A stretch of 59,074 bases of DNA, counting the filler, from Jimgerdemannia flammicorona (lineage: Eukaryota), in NCBI GenBank assembly GCA_003990765.1. It is 2 parts of 2 records of this genome, joined end to end, with 100 filler letters (N's around TTAATTAATTAA, not from the genome) between each part and the next. Parts side by side here need not be neighbours in the genome. Positions count along the whole stretch, not along the records: positions 29,598 to 59,074 come from RBNJ01000497.1; 1 more part is not named here. One strand, 5' to 3'. Positions 18,014 through 59,074 of this stretch are shown in pieces. Positions within the stretch are counted from its first letter, which is position 1; every line of letters begins with the position of its first letter. Position numbers and translations under genes: made by a program. The notes beneath the pieces were generated by a model. The model had not been told where the DNA came from and did no database searches. It saw only the letters and a program-made list of their open reading frames with translations.

Positions 18014-18035
18014 TGGTACCCATTGGCTGGTGATT
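18014..18035 (+). promoter_or_regulatory. Putative primer-binding site
   Basis: TGGTACCCATTGGCTGGTGATT, 3 nt after the LTR. The same motif occurs at 42585, at 59053 and on the minus strand at about 28635-28656. Confidence 0.8.
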
Positions 18036-18130
18036 CAAGACAAATCTCTCACTTTCAAGCTGAACAACAAACAACTGCCACTACCTGAACAACTATACAA
18101 ACTGAGCCCCAATACCCAGATAAGATAGAT

Positions 18131-21100: not shown

Positions 21101-22117
21101 GACTTATACTCAGGATTCCACCAAATCGGACTCACAGACATGGCAAGTGAAAAGTCAGCTTTCATCACCCTAGATGGAACCTATGTCTACCTATGAATAT
21201 CATTTGGAATGTGCAATGCATCAGCAAGTTTCCAGCGAATGATGAATAAAATCTTCTACTATAAAATCGAAAGATGGATGATGGTCTATGTTGATGATGT
21301 AATTATCTACAGCCAGACACCAGAAGAACACCTGCAGCATATCCGGCAGATAATGGAAAGACTGAGAGAGCATGGCCTATACATCAAGCCCAAGAAATAC
21401 AAATTCACAGAAATTGAGATCTCTTATCTTGGTCACATCATCAACCAAGATGGAATACACATGGACCCTCTCAAGATACAAGCAGTGGCAGCATACCCAA
21501 GACTCACCACTGTTACAGAAGCACAAGTCTTCATAGGACTCACCTCCTATTATTGCAGATTTATTAGAGGATTTTCTAATATTGTGAGACCAATCTATAA
21601 ACTTAACAAGAAGGACACCAAGTTCCAGTGGACTGGCAGACAACAAAAAGCATTTGATGAACTCAAGGTTAGACTGACCCAGGCACCCATCCTCAGAAGA
21701 CCTGACTGGACTCAAGAATTCATCCTACAGACTAATGCAAGTGCACAAGGACTAGGAGCAGTCCTAGCTCAAAAGAAAGATAAAGTGGAGTATGTCATCA
21801 CATACCTCAGCTGTGGAACCTGAGGAGCTGAAAAAGAATATAAATCCTACAAGTTGGAATGCCTTACAGTCATCTGGGCCATAGAAAAGTTCTACTACTA
21901 CTTGGCTGGAAGATACTTCACCATCCAAATGGACCACTCAGCTCTCACCTGGCTACTGACAACTGGACAACCCAAAGGAATCTATGCCAGATAGATAATG
22001 AAGTTACAAGCTTATAATGTAACCATTGTACACTGCTCTGGAAGAACCAATACCAATGTAGATGCCCTCTTACAGATACCCTGAACTACTTCCAACCAAT
22101 AAATCAATCATGAATAA
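18131..22117 (+). pseudogene. gag-protease-dUTPase-RT-RNase H single ORF of A2 (in-frame stops only)
   Basis: ORF pieces at 18473, 19370, 20012, 20882 and 21209 share one frame. Motifs: CYTCGEEGHYSYKC knuckle, IIDTGA, LCVDYRKLN, YVDD, FILQTNAS and DAL. Confidence 0.95.
20180..20596 (+). pseudogene. dut: dUTPase domain between protease and RT
   Basis: Trimeric dUTPase motifs: ARMDI, KTRSSLA, GVIDSDYTGEI, DQLMQMLI and RGKKGFGSIG. Confidence 0.93.
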
Positions 22118-23312
22118 GGAGCTCTACTACAGAATTATCACATACCTGGGACAGCAAAAGATGCCCCAATATCTGGAAGAATGGACACAAATGATTATCA
22201 ATAGAATATGGAAACAATTCAAAACTGACAGAGAAACACTGAAGAAAGGAAAACTACTAGTTATACCAGAACACAAGAAGGAGCAAGCAATGAAATCAGT
22301 ATATGAACTTGGCCATCTAGGAGGAACAAATACTTATGACAAGGCAAGAAGAACAATATGGTGGCCAGAGATGGAGGAAAATATCAGACAATTTGTCAAG
22401 ACCTGTGACAAATACCAGAAACAGAAACAAGACCAACAAAATTGAGTCCCAGGATCAGTACACATAGAACTAGTACCATTCACCCACATTGCAATAGATG
22501 TAATTGACCCTCTACCCTTAACTTTGACTGGCAACTGATATATCATCATCATCATAGACCTTTTTACAAAATAGATAGAAGCAGGACTCCTTATGGAAGC
22601 CAATGCACAGTCAATCGCTGATTTCTTCTACAAAGAAATCATCTGCCGATTCAAGACCCCATTGCAAGTAACCACAGATAGAGGAACAGAATTTGTGAAC
22701 CAGTTCTTTGAAGTTCTCTATAAGAAGTACAAGATTCAGTATATTTGGACCACAGCATATCACCCTCAAGGAAATGGACAAGTAGAAACAACCAACAAGA
22801 CCCTCAAGAATGTTATTGCCAAGATCTGTAATAACTACAAGAACTGAGATCACTATCTACCAATAGCATTATCCACTCTCCGGGATATCCGATCACAAAG
22901 TACCCACTTTATCTCTTGAGAAATACTATTCGAAGAAGAATGTTCTCAGGGAACCCTATCATCCAATGGAGATGCTATATGGAAACACATGGACATAGAA
23001 ATATGAAGACTATACCAAATCAGGAAGAAGGCTGAGGATTACATAACCAAGGCACAGACACTACAATGGAGGAATGCGGAAAAAACCCACAAACCTCTGG
23101 AGATTATCAAGATAGAAGACAAAGTCCTAGTGTATCAGAATATGGTAGAAGCTTCATGGTCACGAAAACTAGAGCCCAAGTGGAAAGGACCTTACCTTGT
23201 GCAAGATATAAAAGGGACCACCTTTTGGCTATGAAAACTCTCAGGCACAATCATCCCCACTACTATCTACTAAAACAGACTCAAGAAGTACCATGACCAG
23301 CCAATAAAGTAA
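22110..23312 (+). pseudogene. Integrase ORF of A2 (401 codons, +1 frame relative to pol)
   Basis: MNKELYY, HLGG..WWP..C, TDRGTEF, HPQGNGQVE and KWKGPY (GPY/F). No chromodomain seen. Confidence 0.92.
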
Positions 23313-23754
23313 CACAGCTGCCCTCAAGATCACCAGTGCCACCCAATGAGCCATAGAGAGATAATGGTATTCTATCAAACTGCTAACAATGGAGGAATCC
23401 TTTGATAGTATACAAAGTATAGTCCAGACCCACCTATCATGAATTTCACACTTCAAAGCCTACTAGACATGAACTGAGTTTCAGAAATACTTTAAGCTAG
23501 GACAACTACTGAATTCAAATTCAAAGATGGGGAAAGAAGACTGGATTAAAGAATGTCAGCTCACCTACATTCAGATCACAATTGCCAAGAGAGTGCACAA
23601 ATTATTCAAAGATGATGAGTCAGCTCTAGCTCATCTTCGAGAAGTAATCCCAGGAGATTTCGGATAGGTTAGGAGACAATATTGGAAGAATGTAATGGTG
23701 CAAATTGCACAGTACAAGGAGATACAGATCGTAGAAGCCTGGGAGTTTGAGTGA
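23293..23754 (+). pseudogene. Accessory ORF3 of Gypsy A (154 codons, unknown function)
   Basis: Fills the integrase-PPT interval. The frame is conserved with copy A1, including synonymous differences. The start is uncertain because codon 5 is TAA in both copies. Confidence 0.75.
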
Positions 23755-23784
23755 ATAGGATACTTCAGGGACGAATTACCTATT

Positions 23785-23795
23785 CAGGAGGAAGA
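23785..23795 (+). promoter_or_regulatory. Polypurine tract of A2
   Basis: CAGGAGGAAGA immediately before the TG of the 3' LTR. Confidence 0.85.
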
Positions 23796-23805
23796 TGTAA
23801 TGGTC

Positions 23806-24990
23806 TTTTTTTTTTTTTTGTTTAATGGACTCATGTCCTGCGGATTTTTATTGGAAGGGAACCTAGACTATATGGCCAAAACCCTCCCCCACCACCCACC
23901 AAGCACTGCCCTCCCATTAACCTAGGCTAGCTATTGTCCAGCAGCTCGACCATGCCAGGCGCAGCAGGGCTGATAAGCCCACACCTCATTCTGTGCACTA
24001 TGCTCTTCCTACCACCAGGGGAAACCCAACCATACGCCAATGACTGAAAGCGCACGCCCGAGAACCCATCATATGTACAAGGCCATGCCTGAGCCGAATA
24101 GAATAGCCCCTGCCACCCCAAAGAGAATGACAGGCAAATAAAAAACCCTCATCAAAGCACAACATAGTGGGTAGGGCCTGGTTCTCCCAGTTGAGGTGAG
24201 TAAAGGACTTACATGTGAGGTGGGAGGAAACCCCCAATACCCCACTACTCAAGCCTGTGGGCCTCGATCACATTGCCATATCAGCTCCCGGTTCCAGTTG
24301 AGTACAGCCAAGATGCCTGAAATGGGTAGCCTTGGGCCCCCTGACCCCCCCTGATGACTGGGGCCTCACCCCGCTACCCGCCAAAAGAAGCCAAGAGTGA
24401 CACCTACCACCTAACCATGCCGCACCAATCAAAAGGCCCCACCGAAGCAGTACCTGCCCCAGCCCCAATGACTGCCCCCAGCCTGGCACCCTACTGGTTC
24501 ACCGTAATCACCCTTCCGCCTATCTGTGACGGCCATCTCCCCTCCCATCCCGACAACACCTGAAAAGCAGTCACCTATGCCAGAACCGCGCTTGCCGGGA
24601 AGCTCGCCAAAGCCAGAGGGCTCCACCACAGACACCGAGGACCTGCAGGTAACCTATACTGAGCACTTGATGCCCAAGGTCGGCCGACTCCCTATATAGT
24701 CTGAGACATACCGAGACAACTCCTTGTTGGCGACAGCAAAAGGAAGAAGGCGCCGCACCAAAACGGGTATACCCCAGATGCAGCTGAAGGCACCAGAATC
24801 CGCGAAAAAGTGGAGGAAGCACTGATCTGACACCGATAAAGGGGCAACTCATCACCATTGCCCTCCTCCCACCATGCCCCTATAGGCACAGCAAACCAAC
24901 CCGAGGTAGAGGGGGTAATATTAGGGGAAAGGGGACTCGGAAGGTCACCTACCAAACCTTGTGACTGGTAAGGTAGCGGAGAAAGGAGCT
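23806..24990 (-). mobile_element. Poly(A) retroposon (probably a 5'-truncated LINE) with 16-bp TSD
   Basis: Poly(T) at 23806-23819. TSD GGAAGATGTRATGGTC at 23790-23805 and 24991-25006. GC- and CpG-rich. A second copy lies at 1-123. Confidence 0.9.
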
Positions 24991-24996
24991 GGAAGA

Positions 24997-25491
24997 TGTG
25001 ATGGTCAATCTGAATTAGTAACATGAATCAGAGGAATTAGACATTTAATTGTAGTACCTGAATCCAACTCCCAATATAGCTTAGCCTTACAAATAAGCAG
25101 TCATATTTTACAAGTGTAGAAACTTTAACACTCATAGAAACTTTGGCAACTGTAGAAATTCTACAGATATAAATCCTTTACAATTGTAAAGATTCTGGCA
25201 GATGTAGAATTTGCACTTACTGACTCACAGAAAATGTAATCATAACTTAGCCATCTTATAACTAGCAAAACTTATATAAATAACCCAGTATCTTAGAGTA
25301 AATAAACCTCAGATCAAAATAGTTCAAAGCAAAGAGATAGCAAAGGAACTAGTAAGCCTGCAGGCAGATACACTTTGAACTCACCCACCCTCTCCTGCAA
25401 CTTCAAGAGACTCTGTGAGAGTCAGAACAGTCAAGTTTTCAAGATACAGAAATCTGACATACTTTCAAGAGTAAGCATCTGTTACATTACA
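24997..25491 (+). repeat. 3' LTR of A2
   Basis: Direct repeat of 17516-18010; the differences seen are transitions. Confidence 0.96.
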
Positions 25492-25495
25492 ATAT

Positions 25496-29497: not shown

Positions 29498-29597
29498 NNN
29501 NNNNNNNNNNNNNNNNNNNNNNNNNNNNNNNNNNNNNNNNNTTAATTAATTAANNNNNNNNNNNNNNNNNNNNNNNNNNNNNNNNNNNNNNNNNNNN
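29498..29597. other. Artificial contig spacer (44 N + TTAATTAATTAA + 44 N)
   Basis: Symmetric 100-nt linker with stop codons in all six frames. Confidence 0.97.
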
Positions 29598-32630: not shown

Positions 32631-34559
32631 ATGAGTATCGACATAGATAGCAATGATTACACAGGTGAGCGTGCTGGTCAGGGGAGCAGTGGTGCCTTTG
32701 GCTAGCAATAAGTGGAGAGGAGGGGAGATGGTTTGGGGATGCCAGGGGACTTGATGGCTGGTAGAGGTACTGGTGGTAGAGGGAGGGGTGGCCTGAGGCA
32801 AAGTGGAGAGGAGAGGTCAACCTTTGCTGACAAGGTCAAGATGGGGAGAATGGCCACTAGTCTGGATGGTTGGCTGGGCCTGGGGAAGGCATCAATAGCT
32901 ACTGCTGGGGGACAGAGAGGAGTGTCCAGGGGAGTGTCCAGTGGTAGGGGAGGGGGGGGAGTAGGGGCTGGAGATGTGACTGTTGATGGAGCTGTGACTG
33001 GGGATCTGGAAAAAAATCCAGATATGATTGCAGTTGATGGTTCAGGACAGGGGGTGGGCATGAGGCCCAGGGACCTAGTGGATGGGGTGATGGGCATGGT
33101 GTTGGCACCATTACACAAGAAATCAAGATCATAATTTGCTGTCACATTGTGTTTCAGGGGCTTGGTGGTAACTGTAAGGATAATCTTGGGGCTGGTGATA
33201 CAGGAGGTGAAAGGGGTAGCATTGGTGAAGTTTTTGAAGAGGAAGGAAGGGGTCGAGGTAGGGTTTGAGGAAGAGGAAGCATTGCTGGCTACCATGGAGA
33301 AGTGGGTAATAGTGGGTGGGGTTGTGGTTCCTATGGCCAGGTGCATGTACTGGGACCCTTGTATGATATAGTTGATGATGTTGGATCTTCCTATGGTATT
33401 GAGAGAGAGGGCCAGGGAGTTGATTGTGGGAGCAGTCAAGGAGTATGGAGATATTGTAGACATCAGGTTCAAGGTCTGGGAGGGTACAGAGCTCTGGACA
33501 GGTGATGTTGATGTCTGGGTGAGACTGGTTGGAAAGGAGAACATGAGGAAGACAAGGGATTAGTCAGTGACTCTGAAGTGGGGACAAGTGGAGTACAAGG
33601 TTGCAAGGGTGAAGGGGACTCAGGAAGAGGAGGAAGATTTGCTTGAGGCTCTGGAGGATCTGGCTGGTGTGGTTGAGAGGAGGAGATTGGCTTGGAAGGA
33701 GTATGAAGCCAAGATAGTTGTGGAAGTCGTTGATGAGAAGAGGATCAGGATAGATTAGGTGATCTGGGAGAAGATACAGGGGAGGAGAATCCAGAAAGAA
33801 CTGCTGGTGAAGTTGGATGATGGTGGGGCTGGTGGCAGAGCAAGGGATGGGAGAGCAGGATTGTGTGAGAGTGTCTGGGCTGGGGAATGAGAGATGGCCC
33901 AAGGTGGGGCCAAGAATGGACCAAGGAAGAAGAGGGAGGGTAGTGTAGAGGTGGATGCAGAAATGAGCGAAGGAGTACACCCTCAGTATAGTGTCCTGGG
34001 TGGGGCAGGGGGTGAGGAGGAGTTACTGGATATCCCAGATGAGGAGGGGGATGAGTCAGTAAGGAGGAGCACTTTAGTGGACCCAGAGGTGGGGGGTGAT
34101 CAAGTCACCCAGGGTATGGCAGAGGCAGTGGATGAGGAAAAGTGGCTGTGGAAGACTCTGGAAGGGGTAGCAGCAGAAGAGTTGGGGGGTGAGGACTTCC
34201 AGGTTATGGAGGAGAGGCATTGGGAGGAAATTCTTCATAGTGAGGAGATACCAAGAAAAGTGTGGAATGAGATCCTGGCAGTTCTCTTGGAATCAGTTGA
34301 ATACCAAGTTGATGATCAGAGAGAGGAGGAACTTAGAGGGATTGCAAATGACCAGGCAGCTTACTTGTAGGGCTTGAGGAAGGGATTGGAGAAGTGGAGA
34401 GTGGTCTGCACAGACTATCAGTTAGAGATGGAGGTGGTGGATGGGGTGGAATATCAAGAAATCTTGGAAGCATTGGATGCTCAGGCTATCATAGAGGGTG
34501 ACTTGGAAGCAGAGCAGTACTTGGATCTGGCTGGGGATGAGATGAGTATGGAATACTAG
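32631..34559 (+). pseudogene. LINE ORF1 (Gly-rich N-terminus, RRM-like middle, acidic C-terminus)
   Basis: In-frame pieces at 32712, 33147, 33372, 33567, 33894 and 34374. LDLP...EYGDIVDI...WTGDVDVWVRL. No CCHC knuckle seen. Confidence 0.85.
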
Positions 34560-34590
34560 GCTGGAGTCTCAAATCCAAACATTATTCAAT

Positions 34591-37500
34591 ATGAACAGTA
34601 TAACTTGAATATTCTCTTTGAATGTAAATGGGTTATGGGGGGCAGCTAGGAGGAAGTATAATTTGGATGGCTAAAGGGACTGAATGTGGATCTCTTTTTA
34701 CTATAGGATGTCCATTATGAGGTAGATGTGGACTTACAGAATTGGACTAAGGAATGGGGGGGGATGGCAGTATAGATGGGGAGGGTGGGTATTCTAGTTT
34801 GAAAGGGGATGGGGAACATTGGCGACATTGGACATTGGGGGACTCAGTTGGTGTAGAGAGTGTGGAAGAGGCCTGGATGGAGCCTGTTGACAGTTGGGTC
34901 ATATTACTGTCCAGCAGAGAGAGGGGAATGGGTGGATTGGATTCAAAGTTTGAAAGAGGCTGGTGTTTTGAGTGAGATTGGGTTTGACTGTCTTGGGGGT
35001 GACTTCAACATAGTGCAAGATAAGGGGATGGACAGGACAGATGACAGGAGAGGAATGAGGAGCAGGAGTGGTGGGTTGGATGATTGGTTAGAGATAGAGG
35101 TTGAGTTTTTTGGTTGATTCAGGGAGCCAGTTTTGAGATGATCATCAAATTTATACTCACTGGATGATAAGGCTGGGCTCAAGGATTGACTGGATATTGA
35201 TAGCAGAATGCTGAAGAGCAGCTCTCTGGACAATGCTGGAGGTGGTGGGGTGTCTGTGGTCAGATCACTGGGGTCTGTTAGGAGGGGGGAGGTTTGGGGG
35301 AAGTGGGGATGGGCCTGGACATTGGTGACTGAATTCTTCTTTGTTAGAGAATGGGGCTTCATGGGCAGACTGGCAGAAGGAGGTTATTGAGAAAATTAAG
35401 AGGTGGCAGGAACAGGGCCTGGTAATTGGGGACTACTGGAGGAGACTGAAAGTAAGTGCTCAGGGGTACTGGAGGGAAGCAGGGAAAGGGAGGTGTACTT
35501 AGCAGCAGCAGAGGGTGCTATGGGTCTCACAGTGATTGGCAGCACTTATGGGGAGATGGGCAGGGGTGCTAGAAGACTGGGAGTGGCCAACTGGTGTATT
35601 GTGATGATCCAGAAGGAAGTTGAGGAGCTTAAGGGAGTGTTACAAAGGGAGGAAGAGGTTAGGCTGAAGGGGATGGTGGCATGGCTGAGGTGGTAGGGGC
35701 TTGAGGAGGGAGAGAGATCTACTAGGTTTTTATCATGAATATTACAAGCACAGAGAACTAATCAGCAGTGGGATGGGCTCCTGGATATAGATGGGGAAAT
35801 AGTGGTGAAGACTCTAGTGATTCTGGGATTACTGAGGACTTGTTGGGTGGATTTGTGGAGTGAGGAGAAAGGGGGGGAGGATGCTTTGAACATTGAGAGG
35901 CAGCTGGAAGATTGGTATCCAGATCCTGCAATGGGCCTGGAGACTCTGGGAGATCCAGTGAAGGGTGAGGAAATTTGCAAGGTCTTGGCTGTGACAAGTA
36001 AGGGGATGGCTCTGGGTGAGAATGGACTTCTCTAGGATTTTTGGAAGAAGATGGCTGGGGTGGCAGAGGTATTGGAGGAAATGATGGAAATGTGTGATAA
36101 TGTTCTTTGGTCTGAAACTTGGATTGGGGGCCAGGACCTAGGACTGGTCTCCTTGCTCTACAAAGATAAGAGGTGATGGAAAGATTGGAAGAACTGGCAG
36201 CCAATCATGCTACTTGACATGGACTGCAAACTAGTGACAAAGATATTAGTGATAAGGCTGCAGGGAATTGCTCAGCAAGTACTTGGTGTGAAGCAACAAG
36301 GATTTGTCAGTGGCCAGTTGATCTGAGATGGGACAGCTTGGGTACATGGTATGATTAAATGGGCCCAGGCTGCAGGGGTGGATGGCAGATTGGTTTTTTT
36401 GGATCAGGAGAAGGCATATGATAGACTGAGGAGAATCTGGCTAGAGAAAGTATTGAAATGGGTTGGTGTTCCCCCAGGGTTCCTAAGGTCATTGATTGGT
36501 CTTTTGGAGAACAGTCAGGCTGCATTGGTCATCAATGGCCACAGGGGTATAACCTTTCCTCTTGATCATGGGGTGCCACAAGGAGACCCTTTGTCACCCA
36601 TCTTATATGCCCTCTCTCTGGAGCCCCTACTGGATAGGATCTGGCATCGAATTCGGAGTTTGGACATTCTAGTGATTAATTGAAAGGTGGGGGCCTTTGC
36701 AGATAACATAGTGGTTGGACTGGGCTCATTAGCAGATGTGGGGGAGTTAAGGAGATCTGTTGAATGGTATGAGAGGGGCTCTGGTGCTAGACTCAATTGG
36801 CACAAATGTGAGACTCTGGTACTAGGTGGCAGAATTGTTGGTGGTAATGTGGTTGGGATAGTGGTACTGGCAGGAGAGCCAGTTCGTTATCTGGGGATCT
36901 ACTTTTCAGTATTTGGGTCCCTTCTGCCCCATGCATGGTGGGATCAATAACTCCTGACATGGGGAAATGTGCTTTTGTGATGGGGTGGTTGGCATATATC
37001 CTTGGCAGGAAGGGTGACAGTGCTGAATATGTATTGGATGCTGAAGCTGTGGTATGTGAGATACATATCATCTGGACTTCTCAGCTTGGGTGGTCAGGAG
37101 ACTGATGAAAATGGCAAGATCATTGATCTGAGCAGAGCAGCAGAGTCAGATAGGTTGGGAGGTTCTGACCTTCCCAGTGGAAAGAGGTGGGCTGGGTTTA
37201 GTGGACTTTACCAAATAGCTTCATTGCTTGAGAGCATGGTGGCTGAGGAGGGCGAGTGAGCTGAGGGATCAGGAGTGGGTACTGCTTATGCAGAGGGTGT
37301 GAGAGGCCCGGTATTCCCCCCATGGAGCCTCTGGTGACCTTCTTGCATTGGTGGCCATGGATGGGAGCAAGAGGATATAGTATAAGGGCTTCTGGTGGAG
37401 AGTGGTGGATGGTATTAGAAGAATTAGACTTTGGTGGCAGAGTGATGAGGGAGAGGAGGATTGGGGACCACAGATGTGGAGATGGGACAGGCTGCTGCTG

Positions 37501-38265
37501 GGCAGTGTTTTGGTGGAGGACTTCCAGCTTGGCAATGAAATGGAGTATTTGCAGGGCTTAGGTGGGAACCTTTTGCCTGAAACCTGGCAGAGGGTTGGGA
37601 TTGGCAAGGTGTGAGAATGGAATGGTCTCTGGCTTTGGGGCAGGTGGGTGATGTGGTGGCTACCCCCCAAGTTCTGGGTGGTTTGGTGGTAAGTTCTTAG
37701 GCAGAATGTGATGTTGAACTATCAGTCTGGGCACTTGGTGGCCAGTGGCACGTTTGAATGTGAGAAATGTTCAGATGTTGGACAGGAAGGGGGAGTGATA
37801 CAAATGCCTGAACATTGGCTTGGCAAATGTGATGTTTTGGGGATGTTTGGCATCATATTGCAGACTGGTTAGGGCTGCAAGCCCTGAAAGGAGAGGAAGG
37901 GGGGAGATGGAGAGAGCTCTGCCAAAGACTGGTAGGAGGGTTTGGGGATGAATGGCTGATCCTTGGTTGGGTTCTGGCCATATGGGTCAGGCTGGCTAGA
38001 CATTGGGTATATGTATTTGAGGAGGGCCAGTGGGTTGGCATTGGGGATAAGGTGGTACATTGGAAATAGTTATTACTGGATATTTTGAATGGCTGGTGGT
38101 GAGGGTGAGGACCAGGTGGGGGGAGTCACAGGGGGTTGGTACAGTGTATCTCCCAGAAAAGTGGCGGGAGAATTCAGGTGGTGGGTGACTGGGTTGTCCT
38201 CTAGCAGGGGGGAGTAGAGGATGGAGGAGTAGATCCGAGGGGTATCAGTTGAAGGGAAGGGGTGA
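34591..38265 (+). pseudogene. LINE ORF2: AP endonuclease, reverse transcriptase and C-terminal Cys/His motif
   Basis: SLNVNGL, GGDFN, SDH, NWQPIMLLDMDCK, LDQEKAYD, GVPQGDPLSPILY, FADN, YLGI and CEKC..EHWLGKC. Confidence 0.93.
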
Positions 38266-38360: not shown

Positions 38361-41010
38361 TTTTCCAAAGTTCTCCAGATATTGACTCCCTAGCATTTAG
38401 CATTTAACACCCAGTTAATCCTTGAGCCCAACCCTGCTACTGAGTGAGTATAGACTCTATGATCCCCTATCTAAGTCTCCTAGAATTTACTAAAGTGCTC
38501 AAAAATTCGACTTCCTCCCAGACCTCCATACCACCACTTCTACCAACTATCTCTCTTCTTCTATCAGTTCTGTCTATCCTTCTATCACATATCATATTAA
38601 AGTCTCCACCTAGGTAGTCAATCCCTATCTCCACCAATACTTCAGACTCTTATAGCCCTTGAATCCATTCCACCCTCTCTCATCTTTCTACTGGACAATA
38701 CATAGTATAACCTAATAGTTAAGAGTTACTAGCCTGGCCTCCTCCAAACTCTCTATACTACTCTATTCCCCCAATGTCCAACATCTTTAATATCTGCTGC
38801 TCTCTTTCTAACCAGAATACCCACACACCCCTGCCATACCACTATATCTTCCTATTCTCTCATCCAATCCAGAATATCCAAGTCTCTATTATATCCAATA
38901 TTCTATAGTAAGAATAAATCTGCATTCATTCTCTTTAGTCATCCAAAGATATTTTGATGCCTTGCTACTCCACATAGCCTTTGGATATTCAAAGACAAAA
39001 TTGTTCATATTGAATAATATTATTTAAAGAATAGCTATCTACTCTCTAATTCTATACTTACTGTATTACCTGCATCATCTAGGTTTCTCTCTGCCTCAAG
39101 CTCATCTGCCTCTCTCTACTGAGTATCCAATGCCTCTAAGATCTCCTAACAATCTACACTATCCAGAGCTTCTATCTCTGTCTAGTACTCCTTGTATATC
39201 ATCTGCAACTTCACTAACCCCTTTCTCAGATACTACATATATAGCTCAGTTATTCACAATTGCCAGAAGTATCTCCTCTCTATCATCATCTACTTAGTAT
39301 ACTCCAGCCTCTAGCAGAGCTGCCATTATCTCATCCAGGAGTTTCTACTACATCTCTTCACCATGCAGGATTTTACCCCAGTGCCTCTCACTCAGTATCC
39401 AAAAGTCCTCTCCCCATAGCTCCTCAGGCACTACATTTTCTAACATCTTCCACAGCTATTTCTCCTTGTCTACAGCCTCCTCCACTCTCTGCACCACCTC
39501 CTTCTGCCCTTCCACCTGCCCCCCCTCTATATTCCTTCTCACCAACTTGTCTAAAACCTCCTCCAGCTCTTCTGCAGTTTGTAATCTCCTTCAGCCCCAT
39601 CTAGCACTCTATACTGAGAGTGCTCCCCCTCAACCATCTTCTCATTCTCTATGACAACACTCAGTCCAGAGCCTCCCCTCCCTCCTGGGGCCTCCTCTGG
39701 TGCTACTCCCTTTCTCCTACCAAGACACTTATTCTTAATTCAGCTTCTTCTACAGTAGTCCCCCCCTCTACCCCCCCTCCCAACTTGGCCAACAGATCCT
39801 TCTAAATATACCTCTCTTATGCCCTCTCTCAGGCTGTCTAATCCAGCTACACCTTCTTACCATTCACAATTTCTATTACTGTCTTAACCTCAAACTCTTT
39901 CCAAACCAATCTCCTTCTCTTCATAGCCTCAGCCAGATTCTCTAGTATCTCCAGTATATCCTTTTCTTCCTCCAGCATCTCTTTTACTCTTAAGACCTTG
40001 TACTCCACAGGTCCCCATTTGAGGACTGCTAGCCAGTCTCTTACTTTCTCTATATTCTTCTTATCTGTCAGTCATACTCTAATATCTATATCTTCTGTCC
40101 TAAACTCTATGCCTTCCTAGACTCTAAACTCAATATCTATGATATCTCTATTCTCCTTTATAACCTCTATAATCAACTCTCTGGCCATCTCTTTTGACAT
40201 TATAGGAATATCTAATACTGTCAGCTATACTATTTGAAGATCCTAGTACAAGTACTGGGCTATAGAGAATATGACCCCTCCTATAACTACTCTATTCTCT
40301 ATCACTTCTAACAGCATATCCTCTTTTTTGAAGCCTATCTCCACCCCTTTCAGACCCTTCAAAAATTTCACCAAGGCTACTCTCTTCATCTTCTGGGCTA
40401 AAAGCCCTAGATCATCCTTATAGTCATCACTAAGCCCTAGAAATATAACATGATAGCAAATTCTAATCTCAACTTCTTGAGTAACAGTACCACCACCAGA
40501 CCTATCACACCATCTGTCAGATCTCCAGGCCTCATTCCCACTCTCTACTCAGACTTACTATTAACTATTATATCTGACTTTTTTTTCAAATTAGTAGTCT
40601 CCTTGTTATCAGCAGTTCTACTTTCTCCAGCAACTACTCCTCTAGCCCTGCCACTCTCACTACAATGGGCTGCTCTACCAGGCCTAGCAGCCCTTGCCAT
40701 CTTCTTGCTCTTTCTCAGCCAACCCTCTAATCTAGTCATCAGATGGCCTTTCTTCACCTTGTCTGCAAAGCTCATCTTCCTAGTCTCCTATCTTCTAGTA
40801 CTACCCCCTCCCCTTCTACATCCTCCTACTAGCAGATTCTGCATACTTTCCCCCAAGCCATGACTCCTCCCCACATACTGCTAGTCAAATATACTAGAGC
40901 TACCCTGTCTAGTACATCCTTTGGAATACTCATCAGTTGCTATATTACTAGTATCTATTCTCTAAAAATGATGTCTTGAGTATTGCCACAAGTTTGTATA
41001 ATCTGAATAT
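38361..41010 (-). mobile_element. LINE copy 1, 5' part (ORF1 and APE)
   Basis: Joins seamlessly to 32552 across the TSD, next to the SDH motif. Contains SFADKVK. The 5' ATTCAG lies near 41008. Confidence 0.9.
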
Positions 41011-42093: not shown

Positions 42094-45000
42094 TATAATG
42101 GTTGATCTGAATTAGGAATATAAATCAGAGAAATTTGATATTTGATTGTAGTACCTGATCCCAATTCCCAGTATAGTATAGCCTTATGAATATTAGTTAT
42201 TTTACAAACATTAAAGTTTCATGAATGTTAAACTCTTCACAAATGTTAAGAATTTACAGATGTTAAATTTTTGATAATTATCAAAGATTTAACAAATGTC
42301 AAGAATTAACATTTGTAAAAAGTAACTCATAACATAGTTATAACTTAGCCTCTATATAGCTAGCAAACTTGTATAAAAAATCCAGTATCTTAGAGTGAAT
42401 AAACCTCAGATCAAAATAGTTCAAAGCTAAGAGAAAGTAAAGGAACTAGTAAGCCTGCAGACAGATATACTTTGAACTTACTCTCCTGCACCCTGAGGAC
42501 TCTGTGAGAGTCCGAATAAGTTAAGTTTTCAAGATATAGAAATCTGCTATACTTCTGAGATTAGATGTCTACTATATTATAACTTGGTACTCATTGGCTG
42601 GTAATTCAAGACAAATCCATCACTTTCAAACTGAATAATGAACAACTACTACCACCCAAACAACTATACAAATTGAACCAAGACATCCAGACAAGATAGA
42701 TATAAGACCATCAGTATTTCATAGATATACTTCAGATGAATCAATCATTATCTTTATTGATGATTTGAGCAGTATACTATTGTAAGGACCCTGACAGCAA
42801 TACAGCAAGTAGCCCTCCAGCCTTTCAGTCTCTGAGGATTAGCAAGAGCAGCATTTACAGACAATATGTGGGAAATAATAACAATATAGTACTAGTTGCA
42901 CAGAAGGCCTGGCTCCAAGCCACCTACTATATAGATAAGATCAAGCAAGCCCTGAAATTTCAGCTTAATATAACTTATCAGAGAATGAGTGAGGATCTAA
43001 ACACATTCTATACCAGAATCTAATATCAGATAATTCTTGCAGATCATACTACTACTATCTGAGATCAATTAGCAAGACAACCTTCATGAAAGGAGTTTAC
43101 TCAGAGATAGTCCTAGCTATTCACTCATTACTAATAGTTCTGGATCTATTACAAAAAGTTACCTATGCCCAGTGATACTGGATAGCCAGATACTTGCAAG
43201 ACCATACAATAGAGAGAGTCACCAGAGTTAGAATTGAAGTACCCAAGGCAACTAGTGTAATCTCTACTATAGTGATCAATCAAAACATACCTCAGTAAAG
43301 AGCTACCAAATAGTAGAGAAATAGTGACCCCATGGAGAAACTCACTAAGAAGTTTACTGAAATGACAGCTCATCTAGAAGATATGGTAAAGGAAATTAAA
43401 GGAAGAGATTGCTGCCAAGCTTAGAAATTTGCCACTACCTCAGACAAGAAGAGAGGTTCCTACTACTCTTGTAAAGAAAAAAGCCACTGCTCATATGAAT
43501 ATATCAGTAAAACTAAGTACAAGGTCTAGTCAAGCAATGCTACTTGAAATAAGAAACAGACCAACACTATTACCTTTGAGGAGATTGGGGAATTAGATAA
43601 AGAGGAATAAATGCCTACTCTGCCAAAACTATCAAAAAAGATATCTACAAACAAACTCTACAAGAGACTACTAGAGAGACCCAAGAAGAACTCTGTGGAA
43701 AAATAGATAGAGACTGCTACAGAAAGTCAAGATGAAGAAACAGATCCAGATATGGAACTAGAACAGGTTATTCAAGATATCATATGAGGAATCACTCTAG
43801 TTAGTGAAGGAGAAAAGGAGAAAAAGCTTTACAAAATCAAGACCTTCAAGTATTATATCTTCAAGAATCTCAGTCAACAAAAAGGCAATACAATCTTGAC
43901 CAGCTAGCAGAAATTTCTGCATTTAGACAACAAATAAGATATAGACTTGCTGAGACAACCAATGTTCAAGAAGACTTAGGAGAAGAGAGCAAAGACAATC
44001 ACAAGACCTCTGCCTATGCAATCTATCAGATTGAAGATAGAATCTTCAAAGCCATCATTGAAACAGGAGTAGAAGGATAAGAAAGTAGCAGACTGCCTAG
44101 GTTGAGAAGTTGAAGAAGCAACTAAGCTAGTATTTATCATAGCAGATAGTATAAGAGCCACACCTCTGAGAAAGATCCAAGATATTCCCATCAAGTTTGG
44201 GGGAGCAACTATTCTGATGTGATTGTAACCAATGTCATCAATTATGACATCCTTATTGATAATCAGTGGCTTTATAAAGCCAAAGCAATAATTAATCTAA
44301 ATACTCAGAAGATGCAGATCATCTACAGAGGCCAGAAGATGTGAATCACCATTAATGTTAATAAAGGAGTATTGTCTGAGATGGTGGAAGAAGAATGTGA
44401 GCAAGAAGAAGTATATATAGTAACTACTCAGAAAAAGAAGAAGAAAGTCAGATAGATCAGTGAAGAAGACTGATGTAAGAAGATTACAGAAAGATATACA
44501 CCACAAGAAGTCTGCCCCCATAGAATCAAGATATACTGTAGCAAGCACATCAATGACTGCTACCAATATAGCATCAGCATCAGAAAGAACTATCAGGAAA
44601 GAAGACAGAAGGTTCTTGAAAAGCAGACAAAAGAAGAGGAGGAAGAGGATGACAAACCATCAGCTCCCTTAGAGGATAGTGATGATGAAGAAAAAATCAA
44701 GGTCAAGATTTGGAGGATCCACTCTGATGCAGTTCTATCAGAAAACATATCAGAAAATACAACCATAATGGATATTACCACAGTAGAAGAAACTGTACTG
44801 AAGCTCCAGACAACTATCCTACTTGCAACTGGTCTAGAGATGACTATTCTGAAGGACTACATATATCAGAATCCTCAAAACAAGAAGTAGCCAGGCTAGG
44901 AGTGAAATCACAATTGAAGGAGGAGTTATCAATTCAGATTATATTGGAGAAATACTATTTATGGCTAGGAACCACAATCCTACAATTCCATTTTCAATTA

Positions 45001-45278
45001 AGAAGAAGAACTGACTGGCACAGATGTTGATCTTCCTAGTTCTTCAGCCAAGGATCATGGAAGTCAAGAAGTTGGAGAAAATAGAAAGAGGAGAGAAAGG
45101 ATTCAGATCCACAGAAAGAGGAGTATTTGCTAGTATCAGAATCACTAAACTAGATTACAAGAGGGAGAAAACTGCAAACAGATATGGCTACACTATTGGA
45201 AATGAATTCCCACTCAAAAAGGAACTCAAGAAGATACTCTATGAATTCAAGAATGTCTTAGCTACAGATTTCAAGGAT
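42094..45278 (+). mobile_element. Gypsy family A copy A3, 3'-truncated (LTR, PBS, gag, protease, dUTPase)
   Basis: 5' LTR at 42094-42581, PBS at 42585, colinear with 17516 to about 20758. Confidence 0.93.
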
Positions 45279-47962
45279 CTTCATCCATTCTGTCCAGCAG
45301 TCTATCACTTATTATGTTAAAATCACCCCCTAGACAGTCAATTCCCTTGGCTACCATAATACTCACAACTCTTAGTCTCCTTATCCACTCCACATGTTCT
45401 CTCCTTTCTGCTGGACAATATCATGACCCAATAGTCAAGGGGCTCTAGCCCAGCCTTATCTACACTCTCAATACTACTCTGCTCCTACAATGTCCAATGT
45501 CCCCAATGTCCCCCTTGCCCTTCCTAACCAGAATACCCACCTGACCCTGCTATACTACTATACTTTCCCATTCCCTTTTTCAATTCTGCACATTCAAGCC
45601 AGCATCATAGCTTATGTCCTATAATAAGTACAGATCTATATCTAGCTCCTTCAATTAGCTAAAGATATTCCAATATCTCATTGCACCTCTCAAACCATTG
45701 ATATTTAAAGAGAAGATTCTAGTTATTCTATTCATTTTGAATAATTTTTAGAGAGTAAGCATCTATCCTACAATTTCATACTTATCATATTACCAGCAAT
45801 ATCTAGATTCTAATCTATCTCAAGTTCATCTGCCTCTCTCTGCTGAGCATCCACTGCTTCCAAGATCCTCAATAGTCTACACCATCCACTGCCTCCATGT
45901 CAGACCAGTAGTCCTTATACACCACTTGCCACTACTCCAACCCCTACCTAGGTCCCTACAGATATACTGCCCACTTATTTATAATAGTTAGAAGCACTGC
46001 CTCTCTGATATTATCAACCTCATAATTCTTTGTCTCCAATAGGCCTACTAATAGTTTATTACAAAGCTTCTGTACTACCTCCTCTCCTTGCAGGATCTCA
46101 TCCCAGTATCACTCACTAATCATCCTAAAATCCACCTTGCCCAACTCATTAGCTATAACATTCATCAATCTCTTCTACAGCTACTTCTCCAACCCCTATC
46201 TAGGTCCCCACAGATATGCTGCTCACTCATTCATAATGGTTAGAAGCACTGCCTCTCTGGCATCATTAATCTCATATTTCTTTATCTTCAATAAGTCTAC
46301 CAATAGTTTATTATAAAGCTTCTATACTACCTTCTCTTCATATAGGATCTCACTCCAGTATTACTTGCTAATCACCCTAAAATCCACCTTACCCAACTCA
46401 TCAGCTACAATATTCATCAATGTTTTCTATAGCCACTTCTTCTCCTCTATGATCTCATCAATATCTAGAACTACCTTCTGCCTCCCTGCTCCTGAATCCC
46501 TCTCTACATTCATCCTTACTGACTCATCCCAGTCCTTCTCCAGTATATCTTGCAGCTTATCAGTCTCTCACCCTCCTGTAGACACCCCATACTATACTTG
46601 GGCCTCCTCTGTCATCATCATATTCTCAGTCCTAGCACTCTGCTTGAAGCTTCCCCCCTCCTCCAGAGTCTCCATAGGAGTCCACCCCCTTTCTCCGACC
46701 CAAGTACTCATTCTTGATCCACCACTGACTACAGTAGTATTGCTCTCTGCCCTCTCTCCCAGATCTGCCAATAGGTCCTTCTGATATTGCCTCTCTTATA
46801 CTCTCTCTAATATAGTCTTATCCAGTTATACTCTCCTGCCATTCACTATTTCAACTACTGTCCTAGCCTCAAACTCTCTCCAGGCCAGCCTTCTCTTCTC
46901 CACAGCTCCAGTCAGATCCTCCAATACCTCTAGCAAGTCCTCCTTCTCTTCTGATATCTCTTTCACCCTCAAGACCTTATACTTCACTAGTCCCTACTTT
47001 AGTGCCACTGGTCAATCCCATTCTTTTCCAGTATTCTCCTTACCCATCACCCTAATCTGAACATTTATATTACTAGTCCAGAACTCAGTCCATTCCCTCA
47101 TTCAGAAGCTAACATTTACTACATTCAGCATACTTTTTAATAATGTCTATGATTAGCTCTCTGGCTACTTTCTTCTTCACTATGGGTATATTTGGCACCA
47201 CTAGTTGAACTACTCTAGAGTCCTAGTATAGATACTGAGCTATAGAAATCACCATCCCTCTCACCACTACTCTTTTCTCCAATACTTCTAACATTAACTC
47301 CTCCTTTTCAAAGCCTATCTCTACTCCTTTCAGTCTCTTCAAAACCTTCACTGAAGCCACTTCTTTCATCTTCTGAGCTAGAAGACCCAGAACCATTTTT
47401 ATCATAACTACTAAGCCTCTGAAGTACAAAGTGATGGTGAATTTGATTACTAACTTCTTGAGTAATAGTGCTACCACCAAACCTGTTACATCATCAGCCA
47501 GATCTCTAGCCCTTATGACTCCCCCAGCCCAGTTCAATTAGCTATTATATAGGATTTTGTTTCAGATTAGCAGTCCTATCTCTATCAGCAGTTCGGCTCC
47601 CCCCAGTCTCTACTCCTGCAGCCCTACCACTAGTGCCACTATAGACTCTCCTGCTAGGTCCTACAGCTCCCTCCTTCTCTTTGCCCTTCTGTAGCCAGCC
47701 CTTCAGTCCAGTCACCAGATTCTCTATCTTGCTTATTAGTAAAACTTATTCTTCCAGACCCCTGTCTGTTGGTTCCCCCTCATTTACCTTCTTGTTTACC
47801 AGCAAGAGTGCCCAATAGGCTCTCCCCCAGTCTGTGACTCCTCTCTACATACTACTAGTTTAATGTACTAGAGCCACTCTACCCTATATATTCCTTATTA
47901 GTTACTATGTTATTATCATCTTTTCTCCAAAAATAATATCAAAAGTTTTGTATAACCTGAAT
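45279..47962 (-). mobile_element. LINE copy 3, 3'-truncated (ORF1 and start of APE)
   Basis: GGDFN remnant near 45330, homology to ORF1, and a 5' ATTCAG at about 47962. Confidence 0.88.
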
Positions 47963-48140
47963 TATACTAGAGAAAGATATTAATTTAATTTGTCTTTATA
48001 TAAGTTGTAGTATATATAAATAATTAGGTATAGATAACTATACTATGCTAAAAGTTTATATTATCTAATTATACTTTATTATTCACTTGTTATATTGATA
48101 ATAAGTTTATTTTATATAAGATCTATAATTAATATATCTT

Positions 48141-49925
48141 TATTGGAAAAGAGATTGATTTTATTGAAGTTATATAGATTTTGTATTTTATATATTACTA
48201 ATGAATAATATAAAACTGATGAAAAAACCTAATCATATATTGATATACATATGAAGTTGCCATCCCAATATATCTACTTAATAAATATATATTCAAAAAG
48301 AAATACAAACTGGAGTAAAAAGTAATATAATATATTCAAAAACTAAAACTATATATAACCTAAAGAACTATATATAACTCCAAATTACTATTATAAAACC
48401 TATATTTAAGGAATTTTCACTAGTTGAAAAGTATTCCAAAATATCTAAAATACCCACAAAATATAATATATGTAATCCACTCATAGATGAGAGATGTCAA
48501 TATAAATATAAGTAAATATATTATAGTAAGAAAGACTTTTATAGTCAGAAAAGTATTCTGTAATCATCTGAATACTAGTGTACTACTTGTAAGACTCATT
48601 TCTTTAATGTATTACTCAAACTTAAGCTTTGGAAGAGCTTTTGTAAGTAAATCAGCAATCATATACTTTATAGGAATATATTGTAAGTATATAGTACCAT
48701 TTTCTATATAATTTTATATAAAATAATATTGTATATTAATATGTTTTATTCTACTATAATCTATCAGATTTTTGTCAAGTACTATCATTGATTGATTGTC
48801 TTACTTAATTAGTATGGAGTTCTCATTAAGGAAGTGAAGCTTTTTTAATTATTCACAGAGCCAAATGACTTCTTTTATTACTAATGATAATATCTGGTAC
48901 TTCACCTATATTGATAAAATAGCTATAGATGATTTCTTATATATTTTCTATGAAATAATAGATTCTTTGTATTTTTGTTAATATGGAAGAGATACTCAAT
49001 ATATCAGCAGTTATTTAGATCTCTCACCCAATTAGTATTATATATACTAGAGAGCCATATAGTATTATTGTTATTATTGCTTCTACTCAATCTGCTGAGA
49101 GTAAGTATATAGTATGTAATACTCTTAAGATATCTGAAAATCCTCTTAATGGTGCTCTAATATAAATTATTATGGTTGAAAGAATACTATTCTACCTTAT
49201 TTATAATATATAATATATCAGACCTTATTTTTAGTATGAGATATATAAGAGAACTAACTGTTTGCTGATAGGGAATGTTTTTATTATTATCTTTTATACT
49301 ATTTTTGATAAATATATTATCATCATCTTCAAGTATAGTATCTGGCTTTCTTAACTTTACAGAAGTATCTATAGAAGTGTCTATAGCTTTACATTCTCTA
49401 TATTGAAATATTCAATAATTGTTTGAGTATATATTACTTGTGAGAGATGTATGACATATATAATTCTATTACATATAATGGATATTCTCAAAAGAAAGAA
49501 TGTCTCACTCATACCTATTATCTTTAATTCTTGGTATAGGATTTTTTTGACTCTGTTAAGTTTATTCTTGCTAGTAATAATAATGATATCATCTATCTGT
49601 ATGCTAAGGAATACTATGCTACTATTATTATTATACTAGATATATATATATATAATTATCTACTTTGCAATATAAAAATTTATTATTAAGACAATATTTA
49701 TTAATCCTTTTATTCTATAGCTATATTGCTTATTTAATATTATATAGTCTCTTATACAATCTATATATGAGCTCACTGTTTTTATATCCTTGCAGTTGAC
49801 AGATATATAGTTTAGTATCTATATTATTATTCAGAAATACTACCTTTATATCTATTTGATAGATTTTGAGATTATATACCATACTGATCATAAGGAGTAT
49901 TCTAAGAGATATAAGAATGACTATT
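48141..49925 (-). mobile_element. Second Ty1/Copia remnant (RT-RNase H and 3' LTR 48141-48270)
   Basis: SLRILL..YQIDIKVVFLN, KHINIQYYFI and IADLLTKALPKLKFE. Homologous to the 16473-26143 Copia. Confidence 0.9.
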
Positions 49926-50379
49926 CCTCCTTATATACACCTAGATGGTTATTTATCTTATCTTTGTACCCAGATGGCTACCTCTTATTCTATAGTCACA
50001 TATAGGCAAATTTACATAATATTATCTACTTTAAGTATTCTTTACAAGAGTAAATTTGACATATCCCAAATTGAGCTTTGTGGAATAATGAGGTTGGGCA
50101 ATAGATATATCTTATCTTAGAGACTAGGCACTGGCTCTAAATGTATAAATAAGTATATAATAAAGAGTAGTCTTAAAATTCAGAATAAGTAGAAGGAAAC
50201 TAGATATTTAAGGAATCTGCATACTCAGCTAGTAGTTTTTCAGGCTCTACTATCAGTCTCAAGACATATTATATATAGAATTCAATAGCAGAAGTATCAT
50301 TATAGAGATATTAATTTCAGACTATTCCTTACCAGTACTTTATTAGTTAATTTTCTTCTATTCCTGAGTTCTTTGTATA

Positions 50380-57050: not shown

Positions 57051-57473
57051 TAATTTGAGACTATCTCCATGCCAAGTTTTAAGAAGATAGTTCAATTTCT
57101 TAGAAATTTCATACTGCCTCTTTCCCTAACAAGGAAATCAGAGTCTAGTAAAATCCGGATTTAGTTTGCCACCAAATCAAAATGTCCAAGCCACCCGAAA
57201 AGCAGTCTAAGCCTATCTGGAGCAGTTAAACCTGCATCTGGATAAATGTCAAATTATAGTGATATGGATATAGGAAACTGCCACCATTCTGATATGATGA
57301 TTTCAGATTCAATAACTGAGTTGAAATAATTATTGAACTGCTCAGACTTCAGTATATTATTGTAAGATACTGGAGATGACTGGAGACTACTGAATAACAT
57401 TAGAGATACTGGAGATAGAGACATTAAAGATGGATATATATAGAGATACTAAAGATAAAGATATTGAAGATAG

Positions 57474-59049
57474 TGTAACAGTGACCCCAGAATGATGACA
57501 TCAGCACAGGTGACAGCCTTTCCTTGCAAGCCACCAGATTGGAGCACAAGAAGATTATATGGCATACGAGATAAGCAATGATGATCAACTGTGAGTCATT
57601 GTGACTACAGTACAAGCATCCCAAAGAATATAAAAGAAGGATCAAAGAACCATTGTAGCAGCAACCAACAAGAACCACCAATCTCAAAATAGCTCAAAGA
57701 CTTACCATAAATGAAATGCCTGCTGCCTGCCAAACCTCAAGGTCAAGGAACCATCAAGGCACCTCAGTTGAAGAAAGGATGTTCCAAGACATCAGAAGAG
57801 CCATGGGGACCTATACAAGAAGGACTCCCAGCATCAACCTAGATACTGCAGACCCTTATCACTTTATTCTCTACTGCTGTGAAATGGAAACAAGGATCAC
57901 CATTGCTACCAAATGTCTCCAAATGTGGCAGGAGTATGAAATAGGAAACCTCCTCTGCCAGGAGTTCCCACAGGCCAGCACTCAAGAGCTACAAGATGCC
58001 ACTCCCATGGATATATGTGAAATGAGGATAGCTAAGAAAATCCATCAGATCTTCAGGCATGCACCATGGTCAATCCCCAAATTGGAGTATATTAGAGTCT
58101 CAGACTTCAGAGATCTGTCATCTCACTATATCAATATACTAGAAGCCAGAGTGGCTACAGAAGCCCAGTCCACTATCACCCTCAACAGCAAAGAAGTAGA
58201 AGACTTCTGGCATCCCATCCTTCAGGAGAACCCAGACCAATTCCTGCAAGGATTGATCTCAGTATTCCAAGGTCCAAGCATCCAGGTTAGACCTCCCCAA
58301 GACCCTACATTTGTTCCTTATTTTGTAGAAGAGAACCTCAAAGACTGGAGAGCTCCAGATCTTGTTCCCGATTTCCCCACCGAATGTGATGATGTCATCG
58401 GCAATGACATCATCCCGCATGACATATGCAAAGCATGCAAACTGTATGATGATGAATTTGTGGATCTCATCTCCTTCAGTAATGATGATGATGATGAAGC
58501 CCCCATGGTCCTGAACTTTCTGCACTAAGTTCTTTATTACACTGGATAATACTACCACTGGTATTCTCATGTAACACTGGATAATGCCAGCACTGATATT
58601 CTGAGGTGATGTGAAATTGTTCCAGCACTAGTATTCTGAGGTGATGCGAAATTGTTCCAGCACTGGCATTTTGATGTGATACTAAATAATACCAGCATCC
58701 TAAACCTGTACAACCATTAGTGCCAACTCTGGAACTTAGTAGTTTTAGTTATTAGAATTTAAATTTAGCTTTATATCTTAGCAACCATTGAATTATATTT
58801 TATATAAATACTCCTCTTATTTCCTCTGAAATAAAGTCAGTCAAGTTTCAGTCAAGTTCACTTACACATACTTCCTTGCAAGCAATCTAAGAGATAACAA
58901 GATAGTTAAAGATAAGAAGTTTGAGGACTATAAGACCTTGGGAAGGTACTCCAATAAGAACTTGCTTATAACAAACTTGAGTTAGTCTAAGAGATACACC
59001 TTGAAGAGAATCTGGCATATTTGAAGGACTCAGCGACCACTATGTGACA
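57474..59049 (+). repeat. 5' LTR (1576 bp) of a Gypsy B element continuing beyond the window
   Basis: TGTAACA...TGTGACA termini followed by ACT plus PBS. Homologous to 6922-8474. Subrepeats of about 34 bp at about 58540-58700 and TATATAAATA at 58801. Confidence 0.9.
57716..58528 (+). CDS. Intact 270-aa ORF inside the LTR (U3), unknown function
   Basis: Stop-free ATG ORF conserved in the second LTR copy. The central region resembles Gypsy A ORF3 and the tail is acidic. Confidence 0.8.
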   Translation: MPAACQTSRSRNHQGTSVEERMFQDIRRAMGTYTRRTPSINLDTADPYHFILYCCEMETRITIATKCLQMWQEYEIGNLLCQEFPQASTQELQDATPMDICEMRIAKKIHQIFRHAPWSIPKLEYIRVSDFRDLSSHYINILEARVATEAQSTITLNSKEVEDFWHPILQENPDQFLQGLISVFQGPSIQVRPPQDPTFVPYFVEENLKDWRAPDLVPDFPTECDDVIGNDIIPHDICKACKLYDDEFVDLISFSNDDDDEAPMVLNFLH

Positions 59050-59052: not shown

Positions 59053-59074
59053 TGGTGCCCATTGACTGGTGATT
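59053..59074 (+). promoter_or_regulatory. Putative primer-binding site of Gypsy B
   Basis: TGGTGCCCATTGACTGGTGATT, matching the family A PBS. Confidence 0.8.

Follow-up and report, generated by a model that had tools for sequence, protein, structure and literature searches.

A gene within the U3 region of a Ty3/gypsy long terminal repeat from Jimgerdemannia flammicorona as a likely distant homologue of the third open reading frame of a sister family

The DNA considered here is a stretch of 59,074 nt from Jimgerdemannia flammicorona (assembly GCA_003990765.1), joined from two records and referred to below as the window. Self-comparison indicates that it is made up of nested, mostly decayed long terminal repeat (LTR) retrotransposons, amongst which are two families, here called A and B, that each have an accessory open reading frame (ORF) in the 3′ part of the element. 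In family A this is the third ORF (ORF3), found between the integrase and the polypurine tract (PPT) and ending 31 nt upstream of the latter; in family B the gene lies downstream of the PPT, in the U3 (unique 3′) region of the LTR. This arrangement, which the initial annotation of the DNA had inferred, was found as described. It is likely that the family B gene, contained wholly within the U3 of the LTR of a dUTPase-bearing Ty3/gypsy element, is a distant homologue of ORF3 of its sister family A. That the two proteins are homologous at all, distantly but truly, is a part of this proposal that their sequences support very strongly.

Evidence for homology between the family A and family B accessory proteins

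The features on which the comparison depends are as follows.

57716-58528, + strand: accessory ORF of family B (P0001), intact, 270 aa, wholly within U3
57920-58108, + strand: conserved helical core QEY...IAKxIHxxF...DF, common to family A ORF3; reads QMWQEY...IRVSDF in B
23293-23754, + strand: family A ORF3, 153 codons, decayed; intact relatives are P0007-P0015
23476-23661, + strand: family A peptide TEFQKY...IPGDF
23786-23795, + strand: family A PPT AGGAGGAAGA, with the LTR-start word TGTAATGGTC abutting it and extending through 23805

The initial annotation had noticed a resemblance between these two peptides, both of which are present in the DNA, and had given the spacing between their motifs as 21 residues. 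That figure is slightly off, LL being separated from (T/R)IAK by 22 residues in A and by 23 in B, while the wider register (QxY-30-IAK-22-DF) is the same in both. Direct comparison of the window copies by BLASTP gives a match of 13 residues only (E 0.004), which is short because the A copy holds seven in-frame stops. With intact natural members of the families, BLASTP aligns P0008 (A) to P0002 (B) over 84 aa with an E-value of 8e-4, and to the distant B-type protein P0019 with an E-value of 2e-6. P0019 bridges both families and reads AIAHLQGV where A has ALAHLRGV.

Profile–profile comparison with hhalign gave probabilities that rose from 64.8% to 87% and then to 92.2% as more diverse B sequences were added, the final comparison (13 A and 11 B sequences) having an E-value of 5.8e-7 and a score of 48.6 over 100 columns; the homology proposed in the initial annotation thereby withstood the profile comparison. 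Shuffling the columns of the B profile gave scores of 13.4 ± 2.5 with a maximum of 20.7 (100 trials), block shuffling gave maxima of 28.9 (four-column blocks) and 25.9 (eight-column blocks; 100 trials each), and a score of 20.4 was obtained with the reversed profile. When the window was scanned in six frames, the best non-self match of each family's profile was the other family. The A profile matches 57926-58123 (independent E-value, iE, 0.007) and, weakly, 7939-7829 (iE 0.36), and the B profile matches 23494-23733 (iE 0.003); the B profile found no match in the second, more decayed copy of family A. The register is reproduced independently by MAFFT, in which A ORF3 corresponds to approximately residues 20-165 of the B protein. 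The latter has an extra C-terminal half of approximately 100 residues, and family A ORF3 stops where that half begins. AlphaFold2 models of the two proteins (mean predicted local distance difference test score, pLDDT, 34.9 for B and 51.9 for A) are too poor to superpose; at this low confidence, both are all-helical and the order of the helices is alike.

The relatives used in these comparisons were collected in several ways. Nine of 12 candidates amongst public metagenome proteins are intact relatives of ORF3, 83-153 aa in length. For family B, five close relatives were obtained from 188 candidates, and six matches came from an exhaustive HMMER search against 1.84 billion representatives; five of the six were kept for the B set. 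P0020 (920 aa, repetitive, E 6e-5) was dropped from all alignments as unrelated. A metagenome scan yielded three loci from 201 candidate stretches: L001 and L002 were retained (at 1.3-1.5 kb they are too short to show a whole element), and L003 was rejected as a bacterial contig with a spurious 41-residue match. Searches of viral contigs with both profiles gave no relatives among 117 and 35 candidate stretches. Relatives of the accessory protein family are found almost exclusively on soil-metagenome contigs, and words near-identical to the part of the B gene that was flagged initially likewise occur chiefly in soil metagenomes.

It could be argued that two unrelated proteins, both helical and charged, have come to resemble each other by chance or convergence, as the low identity, the match of only 13 residues between the window copies and the first profile probability (64.8% only) would allow. 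This is improbable. The score climbs with added diversity; it lies above those of all 300 shuffled profiles (three block sizes, 100 of each) and of a further 200 from a separate shuffling run; a bridging sequence exists in P0019; the profile matches within the window are reciprocal; and the two genes share a genetic context, the 3′ accessory slot of sister elements.

The family B gene and its position within the LTR

The intact family B gene lies in an LTR close to the end of the window, in which the following features can be distinguished.

57474-59049, + strand: family B LTR (B1), 1576 bp, TGTAACA...TGTGACA
57629-57636, + strand: TATA-type box TATAAAAG, 87 nt 5′ of the ORF start, followed by the leader AAGACTTACCA...
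58540-58700, + strand: tandem repeats of approximately 35 nt in U3, 3′ of the ORF; they contain TGTAACACTG at 58570, which is like the LTR-start word
58803-58835, + strand: TATA/AATAAA promoter module, with TATAAATA at 58803 and AATAAA at 58830
59053-59074, + strand: primer-binding site (PBS) TGGTGCCCATTGACTGGTGATT, truncated by the window end; two mismatches relative to the family A PBS at 18014

The LTR has TG...CA termini with a short inverted repeat, and both family B LTR copies in the window end on the same base. The ends were checked with contigs of four public runs aligned to the family B stretch. Contigs of other family B copies break exactly at 57474 and at 59049/59050, and beyond the latter position they show differing, unrelated flanks. 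Immediately before 57474 the family PPT (...TTATTCAGGAGGAAGA) is read in five contigs of X1 and three of X4, and it is the same as the PPT of family A. The LTR at 57474-59049 is a 5′ LTR because the PBS comes after it; the element to which it belongs runs beyond the window end. The accessory ORF begins 242 nt inside the LTR and sits in its entirety between the LTR 5′ end and the TATA at 58803. It is placed in U3 because it lies upstream of the TATAAATA/AATAAA module, which is common to the family A LTR, the family B LTR and L001. A decayed form of the same gene is carried by B2, which is the 3′ LTR of a different, minus-strand element; no complete B element is present in the window. A reading of the 1.6-kb unit as something other than an LTR, with an ORF that is simply an internal gene or one of the host, could appeal to there being just two copies in the window, in opposite orientation and without a complete element, but it is very hard to reconcile with the TG...CA ends and their short inverted repeat, with the PBS after one copy and the PPT before the other and before copies in other data sets, and with the homology of the TATA/AATAAA module to that of the family A LTR.

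A 16-nt word, ATAAAGATATTSAAGA, occurs just 5′ of the B1 LTR (57455-57470) and, 15/16 identical, at 12960-12945 on the minus strand, close to where the internal region of the B2 element ends. It was considered as a shared PPT and rejected, the true family PPT showing that the upstream flank of B1 is not B-internal; no homology was found to extend beyond the word around its two sites, and it is probably a chance occurrence in AT-rich DNA.

There is evidence that the ORF is a real gene. It is an open frame of 270 codons in DNA of 39% GC, and the frame is kept in relatives down to 26% identity. In all three pairs for which DNA was available, the ratio of nonsynonymous to synonymous substitution (dN/dS) is 0.20-0.24, in each case with saturated dS (1.7-2.7), a point that detracts from the value of the ratio. 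Judged by these comparisons, the B protein family is under purifying selection. All four B-type DNAs (B1, B2, L001 and L002) have the TATAAAAG box at a distance of 65-87 nt on the 5′ side of the ATG, together with the leader AAGACTTACCA...; both are retained even in L002, where the identity of the protein is 42%. By inference, the gene would be driven by a promoter of its own within U3 and could use the poly(A) signal of the LTR; each family B LTR may, on this basis, be a self-contained transcription unit. Amongst the public runs found to contain the flagged stretch, none is recorded as RNA, and the indirect sign of a separate mRNA is the conserved TATA box with its leader. It can be added that the L002 contig has a 33-nt direct repeat (GTCAGGCGGAAC...) at 170-202 and 1481-1513, either side of the B-type ORF, with a score (21) reached by none of 300 shuffles.

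Sister families and the position of the gene relative to the PPT

Family A is represented in the window by one complete element and an older copy.

17516-25492, + strand: complete family A element, LTRs 17516-18011 and 24997-25492
17794 and 17820, + strand: TATA and AATAAA, respectively, of the LTR module
18014 (start), + strand: family A PBS TGGTACCC...
122-6031, + strand: second, older A copy, with the layout of the first
5044-5505, + strand: ORF3 of the second copy, eight stops in a 154-codon read; its PPT is at 5537-5545 and its LTR at approximately 5547-6031

The direct LTRs of the complete element are 496 bp long, 94% identical and bounded by TG...CA; the PBS follows the 5′ LTR and the PPT precedes the 3′ LTR. 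Matches to Pfam are zf-CCHC (the zinc knuckle of gag, 18458-19339), dUTPase (19955-20854), RVT_1 and RNase H (21197-21823) and rve (from 22602); the rve match falls under the Pfam cut-off, and a D,D35E-type motif can be read in the translation. No chromodomain was found in the integrase tail. The start of ORF3 overlaps the pol stop codon (23310-23312) by 20 nt, in a different frame.

Directly behind the first 10 bases of the LTR-start word, the complete element has a GC-rich (approximately 55%) block of 1185 nt (23806-24990), which is not present in the second copy and whose ORFs are all of 111 aa or fewer. The block starts with a T14 run, equivalent to a minus-strand poly(A), and has on both flanks a 16-nt direct repeat, GGAAGATGTRATGGTC, that covers the end of the PPT and the start of the LTR. 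Incidentally, the block gives this one element two PPT/LTR-start junctions. A duplication of the junction during reverse transcription was considered as its origin and was ruled out by the T14 run and the 16-nt target duplication; the block looks like a later retroposition of the long interspersed nuclear element (LINE) or poly(A) type.

The internal region of family B is seen on the minus strand, in the element that includes the B2 LTR.

8470-6922, - strand: second family B LTR (B2), decayed, the 3′ LTR of a minus-strand B element
8230-7421, - strand: ORF remnant in this LTR, nine in-frame stops
12966-12933, - strand: end of the internal region and PPT TTATTCAGGAGGA, in agreement with the consensus preceding 57474 in other copies
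13294-12967, - strand: B spacer from the integrase end to the PPT, approximately 330 nt
16438-13295, - strand: decayed B pol with Pfam matches to dUTPase, reverse transcriptase (RT), RNase H and integrase

The B2 and B1 LTRs are 77-85% identical. In the B2 element, pol has the order dUTPase, RVT_1, RNase H and rve_3, with several matches below the cut-off in this decayed copy. Between the PPT (12945-12933) and its LTR there is a nested insertion (8471-12932), which is GC-rich (42-54%), approximately 4.5 kb long, and cuts the B element approximately 10 nt into the 3′ LTR. The insertion has a 503-bp direct repeat (8783-9285 and 12431-12933, 89% identical), an inverted 325-bp copy at 8473-8797, and ORFs of up to 422 aa (9163-10431) without a Pfam match.

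The pol DNA of A and B is approximately 70% identical and the domain order, including the dUTPase, is alike. The R (repeat), U5 (unique 5′) and PBS segments can be aligned between the families with a score of 28.5, against a null of 11 ± 1.8 and with none of 300 shuffles reaching it, and the PPT, the approximately 30 nt 5′ of it and the LTR-start word are also alike. By these comparisons A and B are sister families of dUTPase-bearing Ty3/gypsy elements (Metaviridae).

Several observations weigh against the reading of one gene family lying on either side of the PPT in sister elements. The A and B accessory sequences are just 21-27% identical and their profiles are shallow (effective number of sequences, Neff, 1.5-2.7). 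The U3 of A cannot be aligned to the U3 of B. The LTR type is linked to an internal region by only one B element in the window, itself decayed and interrupted. Accessory proteins of approximately 25% identity next to pol DNA of approximately 70% would fit a separate history as well as they fit fast evolution. A tree of the shared domain, in which the B subgroups are not resolved, has A as one clade separated from all B types by a very long branch, and does not give the direction of the change. Finally, there is no functional handle from Pfam (no family for either protein at E up to 1), from a PDB profile search (no match at E up to 10) or from the ESM Atlas (no usable match for the B protein).

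The initial annotation had seen in the two arrangements either a relocation of the PPT or a duplication of the gene. In the sole B element seen, no second copy is detectable in the spacer before the PPT: 12967-13294 gives no profile match and cannot be aligned to the family A ORF3 DNA. Judged by this element, B keeps no second upstream copy, the spacer between integrase and PPT holding no detectable ORF3. It was also considered whether the U3 of A might be a remnant of the C-terminal half of the B protein, and this was rejected, there being no profile match in any A LTR.

One serious candidate, falling a little short of probable, is a movement of the LTR boundary. In this scheme the ancestral layout was that of A, with the gene 5′ of the PPT, and a duplicate of the PPT/LTR-start junction arose on the 5′ side of the gene; once plus strands were primed from this new junction, the gene would become part of U3 and bring its promoter along. 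What would be expected to persist is a trace of the old junction behind the gene, and junction-like remnants are indeed found after the stop codon in two of the four B-type sequences, with a marginal third. In L002 the contig's sole motif of a purine run followed by TGTAAT overlaps the ORF stop codon; on both strands of the 59-kb window, this pattern is confined to the two true A junctions. The place in the L001 contig that best matches the B LTR-start word lies 21 nt past the stop, and in B1 the word TGTAACACTG is 42 nt past it. The fractions of the window null for these words are 0.020 (L002), 0.027 (L001) and 0.093 (B1, marginal). Together with the likeness of the PPT and its upstream 30 nt in A and B, the remnants point to a duplicated junction, in a manner that is suggestive only. 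The motifs were selected after inspection of the data, the post-stop region of B2 has no junction-like motif, the B1 word sits in a tandem repeat, the A U3 does not align with the part of the B U3 that follows the ORF, and L002, a contig of 1535 nt, does not extend far enough for its ORF to be placed relative to a real LTR boundary.

Equally to be entertained, and similarly placed just below the probable, is the swap of a module or the insertion of a diverged paralogue while the PPT stayed put. The two families would then have obtained diverged paralogues independently; template switching, with RNAs of distant relatives packaged together, is one conceivable route, and an insertion into U3 another. 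The disparity between the accessory proteins and pol, and the long branch leading to A, speak for such an exchange, as does the finding that two variable blocks, one from the end of integrase to the PPT and the other from the LTR start to the TATA, cannot be aligned between A and B, although their flanks can. On the other side, retroviral accessory genes and U3 usually evolve much faster than pol, and an exchange leaves the remnant junction motifs without explanation.

Genomic setting, known systems and possible role

The window as a whole is AT-rich eukaryotic DNA, with 20-55% GC in 1-kb bins. The older copies (1-6031) are far more AT-rich than the young one (17516-25492), the GC content being approximately 29-33% in the second A copy and approximately 38-44% in the first. 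The in-frame stops of decayed copies fall at sites that are R, Q or W in intact relatives, and the differences between copies in other data sets are mostly transitions. This pattern fits C-to-T decay of the repeats by methylation-linked deamination or a process like repeat-induced point mutation (RIP). Elsewhere there is extreme GC skew (+0.34 to +0.56 at 33000-38000; -0.31 to -0.57 at 39000-41000 and 45000-48000) in stretches that belong to another repeat family (for example, 38557-40655 and 45278-47631, approximately 70% identical) whose ORFs have no Pfam match. A Ty1/copia reverse-transcriptase fragment at 49733-49930 on the minus strand (RVT_2, E 2.4e-9) is the sole recognizable coding remnant between 49.8 and 57.4 kb, the rest of which is 24-35% GC and lacks long frames. 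Two runs of 44 N each, at 29498-29541 and 29554-29597, were read as assembly gaps or masked stretches.

Where LTR retrotransposons have extra genes, the location usually described is between pol and the 3′ LTR, and the genes inside an LTR that we know of are all retroviral: sag of mouse mammary tumour virus (MMTV) and, in part, foamy virus bel2 and lentiviral nef. The sag product is a superantigen, a membrane protein with an immune function, and nef is a 3′ accessory gene that extends into U3. The family B protein has no long hydrophobic stretch, unlike the membrane protein encoded by sag. Foamy virus bel2/bet and nef merely overlap U3, whereas in family B the whole gene and its own TATA lie within it, and the proteins are unrelated. 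A full-text search, which most subscription journals fall outside, returned no account of a non-retroviral LTR retrotransposon whose LTR wholly contains a protein-coding gene.

Of the retroviral cases, MMTV sag is described as an LTR-embedded gene (PMC12548423); MMTV is a vertebrate retrovirus, unlike family B, and no sequence relation was found, the Pfam and PDB searches being empty. The foamy virus bel2 ORF is described as reaching into U3, and bel2/bet is a 3′ accessory gene that continues past the PPT into U3 and is duplicated in the 5′ LTR at reverse transcription (PMC11362648), as would be expected of the family B gene. Closer in type are fungal Ty3/gypsy elements, such as PosPlaTy3-5, which are described as having a dUTPase located between protease and RT, and as carrying ‘additional ORFs’ whose function is not known (PMC2864245). 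Going by that description, they have the same domain order as A and B, with the dUTPase after the protease; the passages of PMC2864245 on these elements do not describe the position of the extra ORFs relative to the PPT or LTR. In bdelloid rotifers, dUTPase-bearing LTR elements have captured varied third ORFs in a modular fashion, as separate transcription units (PMC5408684). These encode esterases, exonucleases, and env-like or transmembrane proteins, none of which is described as lying inside an LTR in the corresponding parts of that paper.

The B protein has a mildly basic N-terminus (net charge +3 over residues 1-45), a helical core and a strongly acidic tail (net charge -14 over residues 213-270). 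Lacking any long hydrophobic segment, it is not env-like. It might instead be a trans-acting regulator or adaptor of the element, a suggestion that we regard as possible but doubtful; it is the charge layout, which recalls viral transactivators, that prompts the transactivator-like version of it, and a role as an adaptor or in counter-defence would be as likely.

The protein family itself lacks described relatives and is apparently under purifying selection. Families A and B are closely related and between them show both layouts of one gene family; they form a natural before-and-after pair, with which it can be asked how an LTR boundary set by the PPT can cross a gene. Because the gene is in U3, it would be copied into both LTRs by reverse transcription and would survive in solo LTRs, and this doubling at each insertion, with retention by solo LTRs, would alter both its dosage and its persistence. 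In a more speculative scheme, which is rather unlikely to be correct in full, the LTR has become a gene. The plus-strand priming site would have moved so that a promoter-bearing accessory gene was taken into U3; every 5′, 3′ and solo LTR would then carry a selected, self-sufficient unit with its own TATA and the LTR poly(A) signal; and the product, for example an LTR transactivator or a counter-silencing factor, would act in trans on the whole family. If that were true, the solo LTRs of such a family would be protein-coding helpers rather than dead relics.

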